Shown here piece after piece: positions 18,696 to 30,989 of a DNA stretch of 64,000 bases. The position numbers and the translations under genes were made by a program. The stretch is from Actinomycetota bacterium. Its GTDB lineage: Bacteria; Actinomycetota; Actinomycetes; S36-B12; UBA10799. The DNA is taken from contig JACJWU010000003.1 of assembly GCA_020636995.1 (NCBI GenBank), forward strand, positions 153,108 to 217,107, given 5' to 3'. How positions within the stretch are numbered: the first letter of the stretch is position 1; each line of letters starts with the position of its first letter. A model generated the notes under the pieces. That model was not told the origin of the DNA and did not search any database. It saw only the letters and a program-made list of their open reading frames with translations.

Positions 18696-19283
18696 TCAGC
18701 CCTCCGCGCGCGCCTCCATCCCCGCCAGGAGCGCGTCCAGCATCGCCTCGAACGCGGCATCGGGATCCTCGGCGAAACCGATCCCTAGCAGTTCCAGGCT
18801 CACGGCGCCGTGCAAGGCCGACCAGATCTGCTGGGCGACATCGACGTCGGAACCGGCACCGAGGGGCCGCAGGCTGCGGGCGGCGGCCACGTTGCCCACG
18901 AGCTGATCGAACGATGCAAACGCCTCGAGCATCCCGCGTTCGGTCGGCTCGATCTCATGCATGCGCTCGAACATCAGCCGGTAATGCTCGGGATGCGCGA
19001 TCGCGAACTCGCGGTACTTCACGCAACCGGCGCGCAGACGCGCCACAGCATCCGGGCCGTTGGCGGAGGCGACCATCGCCTGCAACTGCTGGAACCCCCT
19101 GATGAACAACGCTTCGAGCAGGCCCTGCTTGCCCTCGAACCGGTTGTAGACGCCCATCGGCGCGACGCCTGCGCAGGTGGCCACCTTGCGCACCGTGATG
19201 GCCTCCGGTCCCTCTTCGGTGAGGATCTGCTCGGCAGCGCGCAGCAGACCCTCCTCCACATCCCGACTTGGCGTTCGTCCCAT
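18696..19283 (-). CDS. TetR-family transcriptional regulator
   Basis: N-terminal HTH ITVRKVATCAGVAPMGVYNRF. Divergent from an MFS pump gene. Confidence 0.9.
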   Translation of the reverse strand: MGRTPSRDVEEGLLRAAEQILTEEGPEAITVRKVATCAGVAPMGVYNRFEGKQGLLEALFIRGFQQLQAMVASANGPDAVARLRAGCVKYREFAIAHPEHYRLMFERMHEIEPTERGMLEAFASFDQLVGNVAAARSLRPLGAGSDVDVAQQIWSALHGAVSLELLGIGFAEDPDAAFEAMLDALLAGMEARAEG

Positions 19284-19342: not shown

Positions 19343-20878
19343 ATGTCTGTTCTCACGGAGGTCCGATCCCCGCAACGGACCCGTACACGGTGGTGGATCC
19401 TCGCCGTGCTCTGCCTGAGCCTGTTCATGGTGGTCGTCGACAACACGATCGTGAACGTGGCTCTGCCCACTCTCAGCGAGGAGCTGTCGGCCACCACGGC
19501 GAACCTCCAGTGGATCGTCGACGCATACACCTTGGTGTTCTCGGCGCTGCTGCTGGCGTTCGGCTACTTCGGCGACCGGACCGGCAGGCGCCGCGCCCTG
19601 CAGTTCGGGCTGGTCATCTTCGCGATCACGTCCGGGCTGGCAGCGCTGTCGCAGACGACGGAACAACTCATCGGCGCCCGCGCCCTCATGGGGGTCGGCG
19701 CCGCGATGATCTTCCCGGCGACGCTGGCGATCATCATCAACGTCTTCACCGACACCCGGGAGCGCGCGATGGCGATCGGTATCTGGTCCGGGGTGACCGG
19801 CCTCGCCGTCGCCGCCGGCCCCGTGACCGGCGGGCTGCTGCTCGAGCACTACTGGTGGGGGTCGATCTTCCTGGTCAACATCCCCATCGCGCTGCTGGCG
19901 CTGGTCGCCGGTCGCCTTCTGATCCCCGACAGTCGCGACCCCCGCCCGGGCCGGCTGGACCGGCTCGGCCTGCTCCTGTCGGTGACCTCCGTGGCGGCGA
20001 TCGTCTGGGCGGTCATCGAAGCTCCCCATCGCGGGTGGACCTCTCCGGAGGTCGTGATCGTCGGGACCACCGGGCTGCTCCTCCTCGCGGCGTTCGTCGC
20101 CCAGGAACTCCGGACCCGCTACCCGCTGCTCGACGTCTCCCTGTTCCGCAACCCGCGGTTCTCGGCGGCCAGCGTGGCGATCGCGTCAGCGTTCTTCGGC
20201 CTGTTCGGGTTCATCTTCCTCATCACCCAGTACATGCAGCTGGTGCAGGGCTACAGCCCCCTACAGGCCGGCCTGCGAACCGTGCCGTTCGCGGTGGTGA
20301 CCGGCGTCTTCTCCCCGCTGTCCATCGCGATCATGCACCGGATCGGCAGCAAGGCCGTCGTCGCGTTCGGCCTGACGCTGATGAGCGCGGGCTTCGTGAT
20401 GGCGTCGACGCTCGACGCCGACAGCGCGTACTTCGGCCCGGTACTGGCGAGCATGGTGGTGATGGCGGCAGGCCTCGGCCTCACCACCAGCCCGGCGACC
20501 GAGGCGATCATGGGCGCGCTGCCCGCCGACAAGGCCGGCGTCGGTTCGGCGGTCAACGACACCACCCGTGAACTCGGCGGCACCCTCGGGGTCGCCATCG
20601 TCGGCTCGGTGTTCGCAAGCCTCTACGGGCCTCGGATCGTGGACGGACTCAACGGCTTCCCGGACCAGGTCGTCGCCCTGGCCGAGGAGTCGATGGGCGC
20701 CGCGGTGGTGCTGTCCGAGCAGATCCCCCAGGGTGAGGTACTGCTCGAGGCCGCCCGGTCGGCGTTCATGGCGGGCTTCCAGGCCGGGTCACTGGTGGCT
20801 GCCGCCGCCACAGGGATCGGCGCAGTCCTCGCGCTGCTGTGGCTGCCTGCCCGGCACCGCGTCACAGCATCGACGTGA
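19343..20878 (+). CDS. MFS transporter, DHA2 (EmrB/QacA, 14-TM) type
   Basis: Length, hydrophobic profile and the GDRTGRRR motif. Paired with the TetR gene. Confidence 0.88.
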   Translation: MSVLTEVRSPQRTRTRWWILAVLCLSLFMVVVDNTIVNVALPTLSEELSATTANLQWIVDAYTLVFSALLLAFGYFGDRTGRRRALQFGLVIFAITSGLAALSQTTEQLIGARALMGVGAAMIFPATLAIIINVFTDTRERAMAIGIWSGVTGLAVAAGPVTGGLLLEHYWWGSIFLVNIPIALLALVAGRLLIPDSRDPRPGRLDRLGLLLSVTSVAAIVWAVIEAPHRGWTSPEVVIVGTTGLLLLAAFVAQELRTRYPLLDVSLFRNPRFSAASVAIASAFFGLFGFIFLITQYMQLVQGYSPLQAGLRTVPFAVVTGVFSPLSIAIMHRIGSKAVVAFGLTLMSAGFVMASTLDADSAYFGPVLASMVVMAAGLGLTTSPATEAIMGALPADKAGVGSAVNDTTRELGGTLGVAIVGSVFASLYGPRIVDGLNGFPDQVVALAEESMGAAVVLSEQIPQGEVLLEAARSAFMAGFQAGSLVAAAATGIGAVLALLWLPARHRVTAST

Positions 20879-22208
20879 GCCTCCGGGTCGCGATCTGGAC
20901 GGGATCCCACACCGGGGAGAACGGCGGCGCGTAGGCCATGTCACAACTCGTGACCTCCTCCACCGTCATCCCGTTCCAGATCGCGACCGCGGCGGCATCG
21001 ATGCGTTTGCCGGCGCCGGCCTGTCCGACGATCTGACAACCGAGCAGACGACCGGTGCCGCGCTCGGCGATGGCCTTGACGTGGATCGGGCCTGCACCCG
21101 GGGCGTAGTGGGCCTTCGTCGTCGCGCGGATCGTCACGCTCACCACGTCGAGGCCGAGGTCCCTCGCCTCCTGCTCACGCAGGCCCACCCGCGAGATCTC
21201 GAGTTCACAGATCTTCGACACGGCCGTACCGACGATCCCGGGGAACCGCAGATCACCACCGGCGAGATTCGCACCGATGACACGACCGTGCTTGTTGGCG
21301 TGGGTCCCGAGCGGCACATGCAAGCGACGGCCAGTGATCCGGTCGCCGACCTCCACGCAGTCCCCACCCGCCCAGATCCCCGGATGGTCGAGCACCTGCA
21401 TCCGGTCGTCGGTGAGCAGCCCGCCGCGTTCCCCGATCGGGAGCCCCGCGGCGGCGGCCACGTCGGCGTTGGGACGCACACCGAGGCCGAGCACCACGAT
21501 GTCCGCCGGGTACCTCCCGCGCTGGGTGACCACGGCGGCGGCGCGGCCACTGTCCCCCGCCTCGATCGACTGCACCGGCTCACCACCCCGGTATGAGATG
21601 CCCATCTTCTCCATCGCCGTGGCGATCAACGCACCCATGTCGGTATCGAGTGTCGTCATCGGCTGCTCGGCCTGATCCACGACGGTGACCTGCAGACCGC
21701 GCCTCTTCATCGCCTCGGCCATCTCGATGCCGATGTAGCCGGCGCCGATGACGACCGCGGTGTTCGGACCGCGGTGCATGCTGTCGAGCACCTGCAGGCC
21801 GTCGTCGAGGGTCTGGACACCGTGCACACCCGGCAGGTCGATGCCCGGGATCGGCGCACGGATGGGGACCGCACCCGTGCCGATGACCAACTGGTCGAAG
21901 GCCAGGTCCTCGGTTCCCCCGGAATCGGTGGTCGCGCTCACCGTCCTTGCCTCGACGTCGATCGCCGTGACCGTCCAGCCGGTGCGCAGATCCAGGCCGT
22001 TCGCCCGGTGTTGCTCGGGGGTCCGCGCCACGAGTCCGTCCGGGCCCTCGACCTCGCCGGCCATCCAGTACGGGATCCCACACGCCGAGTAGGACGTCCA
22101 TGGCTGTCGCTCGAGGACGATCACCTCGGCCGACTCACCCAGCGCCCGCTTGGCCCCCGACGCCGCCGATGCTCCACAGGCGTCGCCGCCGATCACCACG
22201 ATTCGCAT
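20862..22208 (-). CDS. FAD-dependent pyridine-nucleotide-disulfide oxidoreductase (CoA-disulfide reductase / NADH oxidase family)
   Basis: MRIVVIGGDACGASAA dinucleotide fold, and SYSACGIPYW matching the single active-site Cys motif of the family. The ATG at 22244 is an alternative start. Confidence 0.8.
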   Translation of the reverse strand: MRIVVIGGDACGASAASGAKRALGESAEVIVLERQPWTSYSACGIPYWMAGEVEGPDGLVARTPEQHRANGLDLRTGWTVTAIDVEARTVSATTDSGGTEDLAFDQLVIGTGAVPIRAPIPGIDLPGVHGVQTLDDGLQVLDSMHRGPNTAVVIGAGYIGIEMAEAMKRRGLQVTVVDQAEQPMTTLDTDMGALIATAMEKMGISYRGGEPVQSIEAGDSGRAAAVVTQRGRYPADIVVLGLGVRPNADVAAAAGLPIGERGGLLTDDRMQVLDHPGIWAGGDCVEVGDRITGRRLHVPLGTHANKHGRVIGANLAGGDLRFPGIVGTAVSKICELEISRVGLREQEARDLGLDVVSVTIRATTKAHYAPGAGPIHVKAIAERGTGRLLGCQIVGQAGAGKRIDAAAVAIWNGMTVEEVTSCDMAYAPPFSPVWDPVQIATRRLTSML

Positions 22209-22264
22209 GGTCGTATCCTTCCTGGACGGGGCGGGGGTGGCCATTCGGCGCAGTCCGGCTCCCT

Positions 22265-22381
22265 TTGTGACGACGTTGGCTGCGCCCGGACCCCCGTTGT
22301 CACGAAGGTGCTGGGTCCAGACCAGCCAGAGCGCCCACCTTCGTCACAATCGCGGACCGTGGGGGCGCACCTTCGTCACAA
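22265..22381. promoter_or_regulatory. Four-copy 14-nt motif array (TTGTGACGAAGGTG-like) in a divergent intergenic region
   Basis: Forward copies at 22265-22278 and 22297-22310. Reverse copies at 22336-22349 and 22368-22381. Spacing is 32 nt within each pair, and the two pairs are inverted relative to each other. Confidence 0.6.
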
Positions 22382-22418
22382 AGACGCCGCGGCGGCCGCG
22401 CGGCGCGACCCGGCCACG

Positions 22419-23159
<741 letters not shown>

Positions 23160-23166
23160 GCACGAC

Positions 23167-23703
23167 ATGAAGGGCATCATCTTCAACCTCGTCGAAGAGG
23201 TGGTCGCCAACGATCACGGGCCGGATGCGTGGGACGACATCCTCGCGGCGGCCGGCGTCGAGGGCGCCTACACCGCCGTCGGCTCCTACTCCGACGACGA
23301 ACTGCTTGCCATCGTCAGCGCCGCAGCCACCGCGACGGGCGCCTCGGAGGACGACATCCTGCGCCATGTCGGCCGCTATTCGATCCCGCCGCTGGCGCAG
23401 CGTTACCCGGAGTTCTTCACCCTGCATCGTGGCCTGCGCACATTCCTGCCGAGTTTGAACAGCGTGATCCACCCGGAGGTCCGCAAGCTGTACCCGGGCG
23501 CGCAGCCCCCTCACTTCACGATCACCGACGACGCCGACGGCGGGATCCTGATGGAGTACCACTCCCAGCGCAGCATGTGCCGTCTGGCCGAAGGGCTCAC
23601 GCTGGGTGCCGCCGATCACTACGGGGAGCCGGTGACGGTCACACACCCGCAGTGCACTCGCGAGGGTGCCTCCCACTGCCTGCTGCGGGTCGACCTGGGA
23701 TGA
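23167..23703 (+). CDS. H-NOX (haem nitric oxide/oxygen binding, HNOB) domain protein
   Basis: A 178-aa protein beginning MKGIIF. It has a proximal-His context LNSVIH(102)PEV, P114-P115 and Y131-x-S133-x-R135. Confidence 0.85.
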   Translation: MKGIIFNLVEEVVANDHGPDAWDDILAAAGVEGAYTAVGSYSDDELLAIVSAAATATGASEDDILRHVGRYSIPPLAQRYPEFFTLHRGLRTFLPSLNSVIHPEVRKLYPGAQPPHFTITDDADGGILMEYHSQRSMCRLAEGLTLGAADHYGEPVTVTHPQCTREGASHCLLRVDLG

Positions 23704-25388
23704 CCGATCACGAACTCCTCGAGGCACGGGCACAGATCGCCCGGCTCCAACGTCGCGTGGAGCGCGAGCGCGCGGCCCGGCGGGAGTCCGAAGAGGTCGC
23801 AGAAAGATCTCTGCGCAGGCTGTACGCGCGGCAGCGGGCTCTTGACCTGCTGACGCGTTCGGCGGCGGCCTCCAACTCGGCGACCGACGATCAAGCGGCC
23901 TTCACCGAGGTCATGACGATGATCGTCGAGGAGTACGAGTGGAACGTCGGTCATCTGCTGTCCCCCGCCAGGGACGATCCATCTGTACTGGTCTCAAGCG
24001 GCCTGTGGGTGGGCAGTCCACAGGACCCCTTCTTCCGCGAGGTGCGGGCGGCCACGGTTGCCGCACGCTTCGGACCGGGCGTCGGCATCCCCGGGCGGGT
24101 GATGGTGCACGGTCCGCGGTGGGAGAACCAACCCACCGACCTCATCCCGGCCCGCCAACACCTCGTCTCCCAGGGCAGCGTCTTCGCGTTCGGTGTGATG
24201 GTCGAGTCCGTCCTCGTGGGCGTACTCGAGTTCCTCAGCGCTGTCCCCAAGCCCGAGGATCCCGACCTCGTGGAACTGGCCACACCGATGGGCGAACAAC
24301 TGGGCCGGGTCATCGAACGCGCCAAGGCGCGTGAGGCCGAGCAACGACACCGGGTCGAACTCGAGCGCACCGTCAAGGAACGCACCGACGACCTGCGCAA
24401 GGCCCGCGATCGCGCCGAGGCACTGGCCCGTGCCCGCAGCGCCCTGTTCAACACGGTCACCCACGAACTGTCCACCCCGATCCATGCGGCACAGGCGGCA
24501 CTGGAGAAGCAGCCGCCGGAGGTGGTCACCGCCACCTCCCAATTGAACCTGCTGGGCAAGCGCATCGACGCGCTGATCGCTGTGGCCTCGGAGAGCGGGC
24601 AGGGGACCACCGGGAAGCCCACGGTGTGCGTGCTCGCAGACATGGTCACGGACGCCTGCGCGGCCCAGCGCGCCCTGATCACCCCCCACGGCGGATCTCT
24701 GAACCTGACCGTGGACCCGAGTGCGGCCGAAGAGGTGCTCATCGACTCGGAGCGGGTGCGAACCGCCATCGACACCCTCATGGCCGGCATCCGTCTTGCC
24801 AGGGCAAGTGCCGAGGTCGGCGTCCGTGTCCACCTCGCCGGCCACCGTGCGGTGTTGGATTTCCGGGCGCCAGGAGTGCATCCCGATCCGGGGTCGTTGG
24901 AGGTGGTTCGCAGCGCCTGCGAAGCCGCATCCGGCTCGGTGACCATGCGGGACTCCGCCATTGAACTGTCCTTCCCGGTGTCCCGACCACGTCTGCGCCG
25001 CTTCGGCACCAACCGCAGGGTGCTGCTCGTCGATGACACGAAGGTCACACAGCAACTGGCGTCGGCGATGCTCCACGACGCCGGCTACGACGTCGATGTC
25101 GCAGGCGACGGGCTGGAGGCCATTGAGCGGGTCACCGAGCAGCCCTACGGGGTCGTCCTCATGGACGTCCGCATGCCGCGACTCGACGGGCTGGAGGCCA
25201 CTCGCCGGATCCGCGGCGGAGTGGCCGGCGATGAGCGGACGGAGATCCCCATCGTGGCGATGACGGCCGACACTGGTCCGGGCGCCGCGGAGCAGTGCAT
25301 GCTTGCCGGGGTCGATGCGTATGTCCCGAAGCCGTTCACGAAAGACACCCTGTTGACCCTCGTGGCCCGGTACGTGACCCCGCAGTGA
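23700..25388 (+). CDS. Coiled-coil-GAF-DHp(HisKA)-degenerate catalytic domain-REC hybrid sensor protein
   Basis: ATGA overlap with the H-NOX stop. H-box NTVTHELSTPIH. The C-terminal REC domain carries LLVDD, LMDVRMPRLDG and VPKPF. I could not find N, G1 or G2 boxes between the DHp and REC domains. Confidence 0.85.
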   Translation: MTDHELLEARAQIARLQRRVERERAARRESEEVAERSLRRLYARQRALDLLTRSAAASNSATDDQAAFTEVMTMIVEEYEWNVGHLLSPARDDPSVLVSSGLWVGSPQDPFFREVRAATVAARFGPGVGIPGRVMVHGPRWENQPTDLIPARQHLVSQGSVFAFGVMVESVLVGVLEFLSAVPKPEDPDLVELATPMGEQLGRVIERAKAREAEQRHRVELERTVKERTDDLRKARDRAEALARARSALFNTVTHELSTPIHAAQAALEKQPPEVVTATSQLNLLGKRIDALIAVASESGQGTTGKPTVCVLADMVTDACAAQRALITPHGGSLNLTVDPSAAEEVLIDSERVRTAIDTLMAGIRLARASAEVGVRVHLAGHRAVLDFRAPGVHPDPGSLEVVRSACEAASGSVTMRDSAIELSFPVSRPRLRRFGTNRRVLLVDDTKVTQQLASAMLHDAGYDVDVAGDGLEAIERVTEQPYGVVLMDVRMPRLDGLEATRRIRGGVAGDERTEIPIVAMTADTGPGAAEQCMLAGVDAYVPKPFTKDTLLTLVARYVTPQ

Positions 25389-25390
25389 CC

Positions 25391-27796
25391 TCAGGTGCTC
25401 GCAGTGGCGTCCACCAGGAAGTCGCGCATCTGCGTCTCCACGACCTCGGCCTCGGCGGTCACGTCAGCCAGCAGAGTGTCCGTGGCATCCGTCTCCATCT
25501 GGGCGCAGATCGCACTGAGCCGCTGGGCCCCCAGCATCGCCGACGCTCCCTTCAGGGCGTGCGCGGCTGACCGCACCGCCTCCCGCGAGCCCTCGCCGTA
25601 CCCCCTGTGGATCTCCACGAGGCGTCCAGGCAACTCCTCGAGGTACACACCCACGGCATCGCGAACCAACCCCGGGTCGCCGAGGTCATCGCCGAGTTGC
25701 CACAGCACTGCTGTGTCGAGAGTGATGTCGGACGTGGACCGCGCCGCAGCCACCTGCACCGGCGCCTCCCCGGGAAGGCGCTCCAGCACCTTGGTGATTC
25801 CGATGTGCAGTTCGGCACTGGTCGTGGGCTTGAGAACGTACCCGTTGAAACCCGCCGCAGCCAGCACCGACCGATCGATCCACCCGGGATCGGCGGTCAG
25901 CGCAAGTACCGCCAGGGTGTCGACGTCGGCGAGGCGTTCGCGGATGACCTTGACCGCTTCCAGGCCATCCATCACGGGCATGTTCAAGTCGAGCAGAACG
26001 ATGTCGTACTTGTCGCGCGCGATCTCCTCCACCGCCGCCGCCCCATCACTGACCGTGTGGACCGATGCCCCCATCCTCTGCAGCATCTCGGCGATCAGTG
26101 TGCGGTTGGTGGCGTCGTCCTCCGCGAGCAGGACCGGCAGCCCGGGGGGAAGCGCGAGGGTTTCGCGTACCACGGTGACCGGCACATCGGCGCCCAACGC
26201 CTCCAGCAGCCGTTCCATCGTCCACGGCAGGGCAAGGTACTCACCGGCGGTGGGCGCCGCCGCGACAGTCACGGTGGGTCCCATGATCAGAAGCCGGTGA
26301 CCGTCCGTGACCGGCATCGTGGCCTCCGGAGCAGCGGTGTCCGTGATCACCCGTACGTGCAGGGTCTCGGATTCCCCCGTGCACTGCGCAAGGATCTCCT
26401 TGCCCATCCGCTGCAACGCCATCGAAACCGCCTCGACCGCGAGCGGGTGCCCTTCGACCGTCGCCGCGCCCGAGATCCGCATCGCGTGCGCCGGGTGCTT
26501 CTCCTGCAGGGAACCCACCGGCAACAGCACGCGGAACGCAGTGCCCTTGCCCAACTCGCTGGTCACCGTCAGCGATCCGCCGAGGGCCGTGGTCAGTCGC
26601 TGAGCGATGGCCAACCCGAGGCCGGACCCGCCGTGCTTCTTGTGGACCCCGGGACCACCCTGCACGAACATCTCGAACACCGACTTCTGGGCCTCTTCGG
26701 TCATGCCGGGGCCGGTGTCTGTCACGCGGATGTCGATCCAGGGTTTGCGCTCGAACCTCGCGGGGCGGGCCACCACAGTGACCACACCCTCGTCGGTGAA
26801 CTTGACGGCGTTGGACACGAGGTTGAGCAGGATCTGCTGGAGGCGACTGATGTCGGTGTTGATCCATCCGTCGAGGTCAGGGCTGGCGGCGCCGATGAGC
26901 GGCACCTTCTTGCGCTGGGAGATCGGACCGACCATCTGCAAGACGTCGCTAATCAGTTCGCAGATGTCCGTGTCGGACTTGTGCACCTCGAGCTTGCCGG
27001 CCTCGAACCGTGCAAGGTCGAGCAGGTTGTTCAACAGCGTCGTCAGACCGTCTGCGGAATGTTGAACGCCCACGACCAGTTCGCGGGTACGGGCATCCAG
27101 TGGACGCTGCAGCAGGAGATCGACCATTCCCACGATTCCCGAGACGGGCGTGCGGACATCATGGCTGATCGTGGCGAGCAGACTCTGACGGCCTTCCGCG
27201 AGTTGCTCTGCGTCGCTGAGCAACCCGAGTTGAAGGTCCATGGTGGACGCCGCGGTGTCGAGGTTGGATCGCCGGGCGTAGCGCAGGAGCTGACCGAGCA
27301 AGGTGGCCATCACCATCGCGATCGCATAGTGCGACCAGTTGGCGCTCGGGATGTGGAGCATGGCGAGCACCCACGAGACCCACATGACAGCGGTGATCGC
27401 CACGTTCCAACCGGTCCGCAGGATCGCCATGCCTGCGCCGATGACGATCAGCATGAAGTTCGTCGTCTGCCACTCCTCCTGGCTCAGGTAGAGGTGCAGT
27501 GCGGAGTTCGCGATGAGGACCAGGAACACAGCGACGAGCACCAACGTGCCGTTCTCGGTGATCGTCTTGCGCCGCGCAGCCCACGCCACCGCCAGCAGCA
27601 GCACCGCGCTCACCGCGGCGACGGCGGACATGATCATGCCTTCCTCGCCGCCGACCAGCACCGGGTGCAGCAGCGCGAGCAACGCGAACAGCAGCCCGAG
27701 GAACAACCCGGCCGGGTACACGGTGCGCGCAGCCGCAGCGTCGTAGCGGACCTGCGGATCCGGGGAGAGCTCGGGTGGTATCCGGATCACTGCCAT
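25391..27796 (-). CDS. Tripartite hybrid sensor histidine kinase (multi-TM sensor-HisKA-HATPase-REC-HPt)
   Basis: SHDVRTPV H-box, NLVSNAVKFT, DTGPGM and GGSGLGLAIAQ. REC domain (LLAEDD, LLDLNMPVMDG). HPt motif HALKGASAMLGA. The N-terminus has about 6 hydrophobic helices. Confidence 0.9.
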   Translation of the reverse strand: MAVIRIPPELSPDPQVRYDAAAARTVYPAGLFLGLLFALLALLHPVLVGGEEGMIMSAVAAVSAVLLLAVAWAARRKTITENGTLVLVAVFLVLIANSALHLYLSQEEWQTTNFMLIVIGAGMAILRTGWNVAITAVMWVSWVLAMLHIPSANWSHYAIAMVMATLLGQLLRYARRSNLDTAASTMDLQLGLLSDAEQLAEGRQSLLATISHDVRTPVSGIVGMVDLLLQRPLDARTRELVVGVQHSADGLTTLLNNLLDLARFEAGKLEVHKSDTDICELISDVLQMVGPISQRKKVPLIGAASPDLDGWINTDISRLQQILLNLVSNAVKFTDEGVVTVVARPARFERKPWIDIRVTDTGPGMTEEAQKSVFEMFVQGGPGVHKKHGGSGLGLAIAQRLTTALGGSLTVTSELGKGTAFRVLLPVGSLQEKHPAHAMRISGAATVEGHPLAVEAVSMALQRMGKEILAQCTGESETLHVRVITDTAAPEATMPVTDGHRLLIMGPTVTVAAAPTAGEYLALPWTMERLLEALGADVPVTVVRETLALPPGLPVLLAEDDATNRTLIAEMLQRMGASVHTVSDGAAAVEEIARDKYDIVLLDLNMPVMDGLEAVKVIRERLADVDTLAVLALTADPGWIDRSVLAAAGFNGYVLKPTTSAELHIGITKVLERLPGEAPVQVAAARSTSDITLDTAVLWQLGDDLGDPGLVRDAVGVYLEELPGRLVEIHRGYGEGSREAVRSAAHALKGASAMLGAQRLSAICAQMETDATDTLLADVTAEAEVVETQMRDFLVDATAST

Positions 27797-27925: not shown

Positions 27926-27999
27926 GCGGGTGTAGTTCAATGGCAGAACATCAGCTTCCCAAGCTGACAGTGCGGGTTCGATTCCCGTCACCCGCTCCA
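27926..27999 (+). tRNA. tRNA-Gly (anticodon CCC)
   Basis: Acceptor stem GCGGGTG/CACCCGC. Anticodon stem TCAGC/GCTGA with loop TTCCCAA. T-loop GGTTCGATTCC. Encoded CCA. Confidence 0.9.
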
Positions 28000-28000
28000 C
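27956..28000 (+). repeat. attL core: the 3' part of tRNA-Gly
   Basis: TTCCCAAGCTGACAGTGCGGGTTCGATTCCCGTCACCCGCTCCAC, repeated at 46598-46642. Confidence 0.85.
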
Positions 28001-28007
28001 AGGAAAA

Positions 28008-28043
28008 GGGCCTCTGACCAGCACAAACACCGGTCAGAGGCCC
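28008..28043 (+). terminator. Hairpin downstream of tRNA-Gly
   Basis: GGGCCTCTGACC-N12-GGTCAGAGGCCC is a perfect 12-bp stem, followed by TTCTTC. Confidence 0.55.
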
Positions 28044-28105
28044 TTCTTCATGCGTCCTCGTAGTGCCCCGCAATGCCCGTTTCGTGCGACGAATGGCATG
28101 CTTTG

Positions 28106-28124
28106 GTTGCACGTTCGTTGCACG
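28106..28124 (+). repeat. Candidate integrase arm-type site (left)
   Basis: GTTGCACGTTCGTTGCACG, identical to 46515-46533. It contains an internal tandem GTTGCAC with 11-nt phasing. Confidence 0.5.
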
Positions 28125-28167
28125 GCCGATCGCACGGCCAGCAGCCTGAGGACGGGGAGGGGTCAAG

Positions 28168-29329
28168 ATGGGACGCCAGTTCGGGGCCATCAGGAAGTTG
28201 CCCAGCGGGAACTTCCAGGCAAGCTATGTCGCACCGGGGATCGGTCGGGTGACCGCTGCCCATCACCTTCGCCAGGTACGACCAGGCCGACACCTGGCTG
28301 GCCGCCCAGCGAGTCGACCTCGCGCGCGAGACGTGGAAGGCGCCATCCGTAGGCAGCATCTCCCTGCGGCAATACGCGGTTCCGTGGCTATCGCAGCGCA
28401 AGCTCAAGCCGCGCACGGCCGATCTGTACCAGCGCCTGCTGAACCTGCACCTGCTGCCGGAGCTGGGCGACAGGCCCCTCAAGGGGCTGACCCCCGCCGT
28501 GGTCCGCGCCTGGCACTCTGATCTCGGGAGCACAACCGGGCCGACCGCGCAGGCGCAGTCCTACCGGCTCCTTCGCACGATCCTCAACCAGGCCATGCGC
28601 GACGGCGAGATCCCGAGCAACCCCTGCCAGATCGTGGGGGCCGGTTCCACACAAACGGCCGAGCGGCCCGTGCCGACGTTGGCCCAGGTGCACCAACTGG
28701 CCGACCTCGTGCCTGCCCGGTACGAGGCGTTGGTCCTGGTCGCCGCCTACGGCGGCCTGCGCTTCGGAGAGCTCACGGCGCTTACCCGCGCCGACGTGAT
28801 TCTCCGGGAAGACAAGCTGCCCGTGCTGCGCGTCCGAAAGTCGATGAGTCGGCTGAACGGGAAATGGCTCGTGGGTTCCCCCAAGTCGGACGCGGGTATG
28901 CGCAACGTCGCCCTTCCGACCTTCCTCGGCCCCATCCTCACCGAGCACCTCGAAACCCAGGTCCGTGCCGGTGACGCCGCCCTGGTGTTCGCGACACGAT
29001 CGGGCCGCCCATTGCACAACGGGAACTGGACCTCGACCTTCAAGCGCGCCAAGACCCAGATCGGCCTGGACGACTGCCATTTCCACGACCTTCGCCATGC
29101 TGCCGCAACTGCAGCGGTCCAGTCCGGCGCCACCTTGAAGGACACGATGGCGCGCCTCGGCCACGCCAGCCCGCGGGCCACCATGATCTATCAGCACACC
29201 GCCCCAGATCGGGACGAGGGCATCGCCCACGCCTTGGATGTGGTCGCGAGGGAAGCTCAGCAGGGCAAGGCCATCCCACTGAACAAAGAGGGGGGCAGCC
29301 AGCCGGGATCGGAGGTGTCAGCGGGCTGA
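28168..29329 (+). pseudogene. Tyrosine recombinase / phage-type integrase, frameshifted
   Basis: The N-terminus (MGRQFGAIRKLPSGNFQASYVAPG) is in one frame. The rest (TFARYDQADTWLAAQ, then HDLRHAAAT, then LGHASPRATMIYQH) is in another. The frame change must lie between 28253 and 28265. The second frame has no start codon before 28499. Confidence 0.8.
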
Positions 29330-29350
29330 GCGCTGCACCCCGGTGATCGG

Positions 29351-29388
29351 CCCCCCGGAAATGGCGCTACAGGCGCTACACCGCTAAT
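29351..29388 (+). repeat. C-run-GAA-(GCGCTACA x3) module, copy B
   Basis: CCCCCCGGAAATGGCGCTACAGGCGCTACACCGCTAAT. Related copies at 30990-31029 (+) and 42513-42551 (-). Confidence 0.6.
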
Positions 29389-30989
29389 GGGGGTGCAACG
29401 GCCTCTTCCGAGCGGGGAGGGTGTTGTCCGAGCCGCCGCCGGGTGAGCACTGCTACCCGCAGTCCCGTGGAGGTCTGACTGTAGATCGTGCCCCCGGTGG
29501 TCGGTGAGGAGGCGGAGATGGCTGGTGGGATGACGTGCCGACGAGCACTGGTCCATTAGCGCGCTGCGCGCCTTCTCTGGCTCTGCTGGTGGGTCCGGAG
29601 GTGCGATGGAGGTGAGCGGATGCTGTTCGTCGGGGATGACTGGTCCGAGGCCCATCACGACGTGGAGATCGTCGATGACGCCGGAGGTGTGCTGGCCAAG
29701 CGCCGGCTCCCTGAGGGGGTAGCGGGGCTGCTGGAGCTGCATGAGGTGATCGCCGATCATCTCGGCGACGACGACCAGCCCGGTTCGGTGGTCGTCGGGA
29801 TCGAGACCGACCGGGGTCCGTGGGTCGCTGCCCTGGCCGCAGCCGGGTACGCGGTGTTCGCGATCAACCCGGTGCAGGTGGCCCGCTACCGGGAACGGCA
29901 CTCGGCGTCGGGGGCCAAGTCCGACCGCGGCGACGCGCACACGCTGGCCGAGATCGTGCGCCTGGACGGGCTCACCATCAGCCGCTAGCCCTGGACTCGA
30001 GCCTGGCCGAGCAGGTCAAGGTACTGACCCGCTCGCACCAGACCCTGATCTGGACCCGGCGCCGGCAGGCCAACCTGCTGCGCTCCACGCTGCGCGAGTT
30101 CTACCCAGGCGCCCTGGCCGCGTTCGGCGACAACCTGACCGACCGGGACACCGTGGCGGTGCTGGCGGCCGCCCCATCACCAGCCAAGGGTGCGGCACTG
30201 ACCCGGTCACGGATCGCCGCGGTGCTGCGCCGGGCCGGGCGCAAGCGCAACGTCGACCTCGCCGCAACCCGGATCCAGACGGCACTGCGCACCCCGCAGC
30301 TGGGCCTGACCCCTGGGCTGGCCGACGCCTACGCGGCCACCGTGAGCGCCTACGTGGCCGTGATCGGCGAGCTCAACAAGCAGATCGAGGTCCTTGACGA
30401 GGTGGTGGGGGCCCATTTTGGCCAGCACCCGGACGCCCAGATCCTGCTGAGCCAACCAGGGCTCGGACCGATCCTGGGTGCCCGGGTCCTCGCTGAGTTC
30501 GGCGACGCCCCAGGCCGCTACGCCGACGCCAAGGCCCGCAAGAACTACGCCGGCACCAGCCCGATCACCCGCGCATCCGGGCTGAAACGCGTCGTGATGG
30601 CCCGCTACGCCCGCAACCGCCGCCTCGCCGACGCGCTCTACCTGCAAGCCTTCGCCGCCCTGACCGTCTCCCCCGGCGCACGGGCCTACTACGACCGGCA
30701 CCGCTCCGCCGGCGCCACCCACCACCAAGCACTGCGCGCCCTGGCCAACCGACTCGTCGGCATCCTGCACGGCTGCCTCGAGCACCACACCCACTACGAC
30801 GAGACCCTCGCTTGGCAACACCAACCACACACCGGAACCCGAGCCGCCTGAGCTCCCCGCCAGCCCGCCCCCGGACCGCACCCGCAGCCGGGGTCAAGGC
30901 GTGGGCCGCAGGCCCACCCCGAAGGGCATCGGCCTTGACACCGGCCAGGACGCGGTCACCCTGACCGGCCGCGGGGGCACTCCCGCCTG
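29389..30989 (+). mobile_element. IS110-family insertion sequence (boundaries approximate)
   Basis: Contains the IS110-type transposase reading frames. The limits are set provisionally at the two flanking GCGCTACA modules. No terminal inverted repeats were seen, as expected for this family. Confidence 0.45.
29620..30851 (+). pseudogene. IS110-family (DEDD) transposase, frameshifted
   Basis: The N-terminal MLFVGDDWSEAHHDVEIVD frame stops at TAG 29986-29988. The remainder (HHQPLALDSSLAEQVKVL to LAWQHQ) continues in another frame. The shift is near 29966-29972 (GACGGGCTCAC). Confidence 0.8.

Follow-up and report, generated by a model that had tools for sequence, protein, structure and literature searches.

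A predicted nitric oxide-sensing H-NOX protein and a putative kinase-dead partner in an actinobacterial phosphorelay locus

Which protein does a haem-based gas sensor address when the gene that follows it encodes the fold of a histidine kinase but lacks its ATP site? This question is raised by a four-gene cluster at 22245-27796 of a 64,000-nucleotide stretch of DNA from an Actinomycetota bacterium (contig JACJWU010000003.1 of assembly GCA_020636995.1, positions 153,108 to 217,107; hereafter the window), in which an open reading frame (ORF) for a stand-alone H-NOX sensor lies among two-component genes. The workings of H-NOX signalling are known from a few Proteobacteria, and a 2022 review stated that no Gram-positive H-NOX system had been reported and that there was no high-resolution structure of an H-NOX-partner complex (PMC8738867). 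The cluster comprises a gene for an OmpR/PhoB-type regulator with REC and winged-helix domains (22419..23159, + strand), the H-NOX gene (23167..23703, +, 178 residues, Pfam HNOB), a gene for a 562-residue predicted pseudokinase that we call P3 (23700..25388, +; assigned from an AlphaFold model and alignment with kinases) and, on the opposite strand, a gene for an 801-residue membrane hybrid histidine kinase (25391..27796, -). Seven nucleotides separate the regulator stop (23157-23159) from the H-NOX ATG (23167), the H-NOX TGA and the P3 ATG overlap as ATGA (23700-23703), so that these two genes are translationally coupled, and two nucleotides lie between the stops of P3 (25386-25388, +) and of the hybrid kinase (25391-25393, -); a first-pass annotation of this DNA had described the same four-gene layout, and every junction that it listed was reproduced. 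We propose that the cluster encodes an H-NOX-controlled phosphorelay in which a kinase-dead relative of the hybrid kinase is the direct partner of the sensor, P3 serving as a gated phosphatase or phosphotransfer node, a reading to which we give an even chance of being right.

The sensor itself is identified by its profile match as a true full-length H-NOX, far beyond a chance motif match. Its ORF begins MKGIIF and contains His102 (in LNSVIHPEV), Pro114, Pro115, Tyr131, Ser133 and Arg135, the signature from which it had first been recognised, and the family profile bears this out over its complete length (Pfam HNOB, PF07700; E=6e-43, 147 bits for a cut-off of 25.5, profile positions 1-163 of 163). 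The closest solved structure is that of Shewanella oneidensis H-NOX (E ~1e-26 over residues 1-177, 32% identity). His102, Pro115 and Y131-x-S133-x-R135 align with the same residues of the Shewanella protein and of PDB 1u4h, used here as the Caldanaerobacter H-NOX reference (identical over 188/188 residues), and His102, Pro115 and the Y-x-S-x-R residues are invariant among 32 aligned homologues. Counted from the Met, positions 9, 74 and 140 are Val, Pro and Leu, as the first-pass annotation had it. The alignment with 1u4h indeed pairs Trp9 with Val9 and Tyr140 with Leu140; Asn74, however, falls on Ser72 and not on Pro74, because of a two-residue indel that is offset by later indels, so that position 74 was not the structural counterpart it had been taken for. 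The conclusion drawn on the pocket is unchanged: the Trp9/Asn74/Tyr140 hydrogen-bond network is absent and the distal residue is Leu140. O2 binding requires a distal Tyr, and in facultative organisms the H-NOX proteins that lack one are specific for NO (nitric oxide) (PMC8738867). The apolar distal pocket and the intact haem-ligating set therefore support assignment to the O2-excluding, NO-binding class, as originally suggested, with haem binding predicted.

The H-NOX also has a zinc site, formed by Cys138, Cys163, Cys171 and His161, of which the earlier description made no mention. The three Cys are invariant among the 32 homologues and residue 161 is His or Gln, which corresponds to the zinc-site pattern of groups 2/3 (3 conserved Cys and His/Gln). 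The 'group 3' H-NOX proteins (Mukhopadhyay et al. 2020), which include those of Mycobacterium sp. and Caulobacter, keep this 3 Cys plus His/Gln site (PMC7108781), and oxidation of the zinc site in haem-free Vibrio H-NOX inhibits the cognate kinase (PMC8738867). Presence of the site makes a redox input possible alongside NO; by analogy, a haem-independent redox-sensing mode may thus exist beside NO sensing. The Cys-bearing C-terminal part (residues 131-175, 23557-23691) also gives a sub-threshold match to V4R (E=3.2e-5, 24 bits, cut-off 31), and an HNOB and V4R Pfam pair is precomputed for most of the homologues.

P3 had been called a GAF-DHp-REC protein and the cluster a two-kinase phosphorelay; its domains hold up, its role as a kinase does not. 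At normal thresholds Pfam finds REC only (441-555), and relaxed searches add GAF_2 (E=0.011, in the first 215 residues) and the start of HisKA (E=0.017, residues 245-269), weak matches that homology and modelling back; no HATPase_c match appears in P3 even at E<=1. The AlphaFold model (mean predicted local distance difference test score, pLDDT, 86) gives a layout of an N-terminal helix (3-60), GAF (64-187), a signalling helix and DHp (188-299), a CA-like alpha/beta domain (308-426) and REC (440-556). Over the whole chain its structural matches are bacteriophytochrome kinases, ShkA and LOV-kinases, and the DHp and CA-like segment modelled alone (pLDDT 84.5) matches in Foldseek the cores of HK853, HprS, CusS, SrrB and WalK (E ~1e-9, template modelling score 0.5-0.64) as well as the pseudokinases RetS and DivL. 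When P3 was aligned with the genuine GAF-kinases of related loci and with the hybrid kinase of the window, His255 (codon 24462-24464), in the H-box VTHELSTP, fell at the phospho-acceptor position. At the ATP site, Gly stands where the N-box has Asn, there is no DxGxG motif, and a deletion of some 30 residues has removed the F and G2 boxes.

This is a property of the family and not of one protein. Clustering at 90% leaves 34 full-length relatives of P3 (557-590 residues), with REC as sole precomputed Pfam domain in 34/34; an alignment was made of 31, the most distant at 41% identity. All 31 lack the N, G1, F and G2 boxes, and His255, Leu257, Thr259 and Pro260 are invariant, as are Asp445/446, Asp489 (codon 25164-25166), Thr522 and Lys544 of the REC; the residue after His255 is Glu or Asp in every member (31/31). 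Willett and Kirby reportedly tied the HisKA motif His-[E/D]-x-x-Thr to phosphatase activity. P3 is therefore predicted, from alignment and model, to be a kinase-fold protein unable to bind ATP canonically, which makes 'two-kinase phosphorelay' an inaccurate description, as the hybrid kinase alone would be able to use ATP. The invariant His-[E/D]-x-x-Thr, combined with loss of the ATP boxes, argues for selection that kept phosphoryl chemistry and not autokinase activity. We considered whether P3 is a decaying pseudogene and rejected this because its His, REC and GAF residues are invariant across the 31 members.

What may link P3 to the sensor is its N-terminal part, a helix-GAF module of about 200 residues that was not part of the earlier description. 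In a genomic survey (one genome per species, 307 H-NOX relatives; locus counts refer to the best 80 of the 307), a module homologous to P3 residues ~10-212 begins the gene after H-NOX in at least 60 of 80 loci, at 29-39% identity to P3 outside the clade of the window and higher inside it. What follows the module varies widely. Among the 79 loci for which the architecture of the downstream gene was tabulated, 32 have GAF-GGDEF-EAL, seven GGDEF-EAL with the GAF under threshold, eight GAF-HisKA-CA, nine hybrid-kinase variants with or without HPt, seven a GAF whose output was unmatched by the probes, and seven the GAF / dead CA / REC arrangement of P3 (one copy frameshifted), the other nine being of other or unclassified type. 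Further afield, 1,209 clusters contained the module (E<=1e-10) in an exhaustive representative search with P3 1-215, where it usually forms the N-terminus of a protein of 320-900 residues (a word-index search gave 2 fragments and was uninformative). The constant neighbour of this H-NOX subfamily, as judged from gene order, is thus the helix-GAF module and not a kinase, and its constancy together with the ATGA coupling makes P3 the most probable direct partner of H-NOX, ahead of the hybrid kinase. A wider generalisation, which we put forward tentatively and hold to be possible though somewhat doubtful, is that the module would be a general receiver for the H-NOX subfamily across phyla, which in the clade of the window joins NO/redox sensing to a kinase-dead DHp-REC protein; this would be the first H-NOX with a pseudokinase target, acting as a gated phosphatase or phosphotransferase in the relay of another kinase.

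Some other downstream genes deserve mention. Three actinomycetotal loci have a GAF-GAF-HisKA_3-HATPase_c gene (Pfam) after H-NOX (L056:8546-10342, L035:8545-10365 and L030:997-2793 in our locus numbering), two of which, L035 and L056, are labelled Mycobacterium/Mycobacteriaceae. DosS and DosT, the haem kinases of mycobacteria, show the same order of domains, and a DosS-like kinase gene beside H-NOX in these three loci is worth a separate look. GAF-PAS-SpoIIE and GAF-SpoIIE proteins (PP2C phosphatases) in two, and a PAS / sigma-54 activator in one, are encoded at L069:8486-11626, L078:8411-9928 and L067:305-3052.

How widely the cluster is conserved depends on which of its genes are counted. 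Identical copies of the H-NOX protein are indexed in 503 assembly blocks, sewage and activated-sludge assemblies and NCBI metagenome-assembled genomes (MAGs) among them, and the neighbourhood is identical in 6/6 displayed placements; the NCBI MAG records (Candidatus Nanopelagicales or Actinomycetota) name the products 'heme NO-binding domain-containing protein', 'response regulator' and 'ATP-binding protein'. All four genes occur together in just the seven most closely related loci (62-84% identity in H-NOX), which upholds a conserved two-component cluster with an OmpR-type regulator. The triad of H-NOX, P3 and convergent hybrid kinase reaches further, to the distant high-GC contigs L088 and L089 (48%, 43% and 45% identity). 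No OmpR-type gene adjoins the triad in these two, the regulator being confined to the clade of the window, and the sensor part of the hybrid kinase is not conserved, that of L088 having PAS instead of a membrane sensor. In the distant triad loci, two same-strand genes replace the regulator upstream of H-NOX, at L087:1659-6454 and L088:1666-6404, encoding a 1254-residue protein with no Pfam match and a protein of 325-338 residues with a weak calcineurin-like phosphoesterase match (E=5.7e-5). In L087, the H-NOX frame diverges after about residue 110 (L087:6451-6924) and gene calling splits the hybrid kinase into a HisKA-HATPase and a REC-Hpt gene (L087:8796-11052); these broken frames may reflect assembly frameshifts or decay in that lineage.

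The survey also speaks against the rarity of actinobacterial H-NOX that the first-pass annotation had implied. By record labels, about half of the best 80 species-level loci are Actinomycetota (Mycobacterium sp. M26, Kitasatospora, Solicola, Conexibacter, Frankiaceae and many MAGs among them), the remainder coming from Chloroflexota, Acidobacteriota, Proteobacteria and others, and actinobacterial homologues were pointed out in 2020 and 2022 (PMC7108781, PMC8738867). Actinobacterial H-NOX genes are, then, common in genomes, noted in the literature and uncharacterised; in line with the earlier claim, we found no characterised actinobacterial H-NOX system in the literature, with incomplete coverage of subscription journals. 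H-NOX loci of the same subfamily are also carried by MAG contigs labelled 'Bifidobacterium breve' (L080) and 'Enterobacteriaceae' (L071), labels that probably reflect mis-binning; the gene order of L080 is that of the Mycobacterium/Mycobacteriaceae loci L054, L056 and L079.

The fourth protein of the cluster was confirmed as a multi-pass tripartite hybrid kinase convergent with P3, Pfam domains and hydropathy being in agreement. Reading from its N-terminus on the minus strand, it has 5-6 transmembrane helices (by hydropathy, residues ~28-175, 27272-27715), HisKA with His212 in the H-box HDVRTP (26996-27190), HATPase_c (26516-26854; N-box at 325, G1 at 360, G2 at 389), REC with Asp603 in LLDLNMP (25805-26134) and HPt with His746 in HALKG (25448-25654), the four domains HisKA, HATPase_c, Response_reg and Hpt all being above the Pfam cut-off. 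No NCBIfam equivalog cut-off was reached by the hybrid kinase; its domain content identifies it as a hybrid kinase of the BarA/TorS/ArcB type with no named orthologue. It is the sole protein of the cluster with a complete catalytic core and, since P3 has no ATP site, the only one that could power a relay.

From these observed residues and domains we infer the docking site on P3, the direction of phosphoryl flow and the output of the system, in the following way. NO-bound, or thiol-oxidised, H-NOX would dock on the helix-GAF of P3 and change the conformation of its DHp. P3, unable to autophosphorylate, would work as a gated phosphatase and/or phosphotransfer node, the hybrid kinase being the sole ATP-driven source of phosphoryl groups (His212 to Asp603 to His746) in response to a separate membrane signal. 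The REC of P3 (Asp489) would probably receive phosphoryl groups from the HPt of the hybrid kinase, and the DHp of P3 (His255 with E/D-x-x-T) would remove phosphoryl groups from the regulator or pass them to it, the regulator being proposed as its target because the two are co-transcribed, as cognate kinase-regulator pairs usually are. In this way the phosphorylation state of the regulator would merge two inputs, the membrane signal and NO/redox status, and control transcription, that of the operon itself probably included. A branched relay in the cluster is possible.

Several points weigh against this scheme. The direction of phosphoryl flow through P3 is one that we only infer, and the GAF of P3 could bind a ligand of its own. 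The distant triad loci have no OmpR-type regulator, which may therefore not be the universal target of P3, and a second His relay step via P3 is not required, given that the hybrid kinase already has an HPt. The host organism, moreover, is known from metagenome assemblies only. Finally, characterised H-NOX proteins act on active kinases or cyclases, and by analogy direct action on the hybrid kinase is possible. Cast in the classical HnoX/HnoK logic, NO-bound H-NOX would inhibit autophosphorylation of the hybrid kinase and P3 would be a downstream REC relay or sink that H-NOX does not contact. In favour of this, every kinase-linked H-NOX so far characterised has an active kinase as its target (PMC8738867, PMC8846402), and hybrid kinase and H-NOX are conserved together at 45-48% identity. 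Yet the hybrid kinase has no helix-GAF, its sensor part is variable (transmembrane helices in the window, PAS in L088) and it is encoded on the opposite strand, whereas the protein that nearly always comes next after H-NOX, across phyla, is a helix-GAF protein, joined to the sensor in the window by the ATGA overlap; we regard the classical arrangement as unlikely here.

The co-conservation of neighbouring P3 and hybrid kinase genes could also mean that P3 is a blocker, whose DHp heterodimerises with that of the hybrid kinase and silences it under H-NOX control, His255 and the REC being chemically unused. Such a role would recall RetS, which together with DivL is among the structural matches of the DHp and CA-like model. 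The DHp sequences of P3 and of the hybrid kinase are, however, not particularly similar, and the invariance to 41% identity of His255, of the acidic residue at +1, of the Thr at +4 and of the REC catalytic residues speaks for selection on phosphoryl chemistry, so that a pure blocker seems the most improbable of the alternatives. A different doubt concerns the signal rather than the partner: H-NOX might be mainly a haem-independent thiol/zinc sensor, as in haem-free Vibrio cholerae H-NOX, and the cluster would then report oxidative or disulfide stress and not NO. Invariant Cys138, Cys163 and Cys171, with His or Gln at residue 161 as in the zinc-binding groups of PMC7108781, would suit this idea, as would a gene of the coenzyme A (CoA)-disulfide-reductase family that lies divergently upstream in the window, L007, L011 and L012. 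But that gene is absent in L008, L009, L010, L072 and L087-L089, and the haem ligand His102 and the Y-x-S-x-R are as invariant as the Cys; we consider a mainly redox function distinctly unlikely, if a little less so than the blocker, and the two sensing modes are in any case not mutually exclusive. The preferred reading remains that of P3 as the direct, kinase-dead partner of H-NOX.

The proposed output of the relay, the regulator, is an OmpR/MtrA-like protein (Pfam Response_reg E=1.3e-27, Trans_reg_C E=2.2e-27) with the phospho-acceptor Asp72 in the numbering of the 246-residue form; its best NCBIfam model is MtrA, at 220 bits, under the 300-bit equivalog cut-off. The conserved start is probably not the ATG of this form but the GTG at 22473, which gives 228 residues: the ORF begins at GTG in L011 and L012, where the DNA 5' of the GTG is conserved as non-coding, and the 228-residue version is found in several MAG records. 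In 8/8 orthologous loci a conserved non-coding segment precedes the GTG (window 22400-22475), consisting of CCCTG..A.AATC, 6-7 nt and the GTG. Its form points to a -10-like element and to a transcript that lacks a leader and begins at 22473, which would itself imply a regulator of 228 residues. Some of the orthologous loci also have a direct repeat, CCCTGCCAC, with a spacing of about 21 nt near this segment. A scan for sigma-70 promoters and terminators found nothing over shuffle expectation.

Between the reductase-like gene and the regulator GTG lie 229 bp, which hold an array of four 14-nt boxes, TTGTSACGAAGGTG, 5' of the operon (22263..22383; two forward and two reverse, starting at 22265(+), 22297(+), 22336(-) and 22368(-), with spacings of 32/39/32 nt). 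In 100 shuffles the box count never came up to that observed, and the window has no other exact copy. The same layout, built from different box sequences, recurs in L007, L008, L009, L011, L012 and L072, even though the regulators are 78-91% identical; box copies are alike within a species and differ between orthologous loci. Several of the cores, CGTCACAA (GTCACA) in the window and CACGAGG in L009, are like the published MtrA motifs GTCACAgcg and CACGAGG (PMC2945938), and the array may be a candidate operator for the MtrA-like regulator, offering a lead on autoregulation. We also considered a conserved structured RNA leader, as hairpin energies of the array reach z-scores of about -4 to -8 in the window, L008, L009 and L072; this is unsupported because the hairpin stability is absent in L007, L011 and L012. 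Rfam found no known RNA family in the leader and intergenic region, the tRNA alone being returned.

Other genes lie on either side of the cluster. The divergent gene upstream (20862..22244, -) encodes a flavoprotein of the CoA-disulfide-reductase/NADH-oxidase family (Pfam Pyr_redox_2, Pyr_redox, Pyr_redox_dim), which scores 391 bits with the NCBIfam CoA-disulfide reductase model, under its 579-bit cut-off; it was rejected as a component of the system because it is absent from half of the orthologous loci. Its 3' end overlaps by 17 nt (20862-20878) that of an MFS transporter gene on the + strand, to which a TetR-family gene (18696-19283) is divergent. Next to the hybrid kinase gene is a tRNA-Gly(CCC) (27926-27999), with the H-NOX cluster on one side of it and on the other a phage-type integrase gene (28499-29329) and an IS110-family transposase present as two overlapping ORFs (29620-29988 and 29820-30851); the stretch 27926-30851 has the appearance of a hot spot for integration.

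In wastewater plants, nitrogen removal routinely passes through NO, and the locus represents an actinobacterial H-NOX system from an organism found repeatedly in metagenomes of sewage and activated sludge. With sensing and ATP-dependent phosphorylation placed on different proteins, effects of H-NOX on phosphatase or phosphotransfer activity become separable from effects on autophosphorylation, and the soluble, conserved helix-GAF module of about 200 residues is a concrete candidate docking partner for structural work.

Among known systems, HnoX-HnoK of Shewanella oneidensis and Vibrio cholerae is the obvious point of reference. As there, a stand-alone H-NOX of about 180 residues lies beside two-component genes, and it shares with the Shewanella and Vibrio proteins the proximal His, the Y-x-S-x-R, the apolar distal pocket and the Cys3/His zinc site. 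The partners differ, as the first-pass annotation had noted in setting them apart from the HnoK/HnoB/C/D scheme: the adjacent P3 is catalytically incompetent by sequence and has a helix-GAF and a REC, the active kinase is a separate membrane hybrid with an HPt, and the proposed output is a DNA-binding regulator of the OmpR/MtrA-like kind. Within 10 kb either side of the cluster, no EAL, HD-GYP or HnoC-type regulator is called. The sensor of Caulobacter crescentus, CC2992, with CC2993 (HnoK) as its partner, is in the same group 3 by sequence similarity, a group characterised by the 3-Cys plus His/Gln zinc pattern and a kinase gene next to that for H-NOX (PMC7108781, PMC10746521), but CC2993, for which there are deletion phenotypes only, is described as a histidine kinase and by that description set apart from P3. 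The H-NOX-HqsK systems of Vibrio parahaemolyticus and harveyi similarly lead from a hybrid kinase/phosphatase through a His-Asp-His-Asp relay to transcription control (PMC8738867); HqsK, however, is catalytically active and toggles between kinase and phosphatase, whereas the locus of the window splits the kinase and the H-NOX-coupled DHp over two polypeptides. The GGDEF-EAL genes after H-NOX in 32-39 of the 79 loci of relatives match a known H-NOX/c-di-GMP (cyclic di-GMP) theme, exemplified by Legionella Lpg1057 and Shewanella woodyi SwDGC (PMC8846402), in the place of which the clade of the window has DHp, dead CA and REC.

For P3 itself, parallels are found outside H-NOX signalling. The phosphotransferases Spo0B (Bacillus) and ChpT (Caulobacter) and the pseudokinases RetS and DivL have a kinase-core fold that does not use ATP and serve as relay, phosphatase or regulatory nodes. 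The modelled P3 is like Spo0B and ChpT in combining such a fold, devoid of ATP boxes, with a conserved His on a helical bundle; Pfam HPTransfase gave no match in P3, and so no sequence-level tie to the ChpT-type family. We know of none among Spo0B, ChpT, RetS and DivL that has a GAF input or a C-terminal REC, or that is linked to H-NOX, and the literature, incompletely covered for subscription journals, gave no description of an H-NOX with a pseudokinase or GAF-module partner. Leptospira LvrB, at first a candidate analogue of P3, was set aside because it is an active REC-controlled kinase. Altogether, the locus extends current H-NOX models and overturns none: from its gene content, it resembles HnoX/HnoK and H-NOX/HqsK in general logic and departs from them in the feature of an adjacent active kinase.

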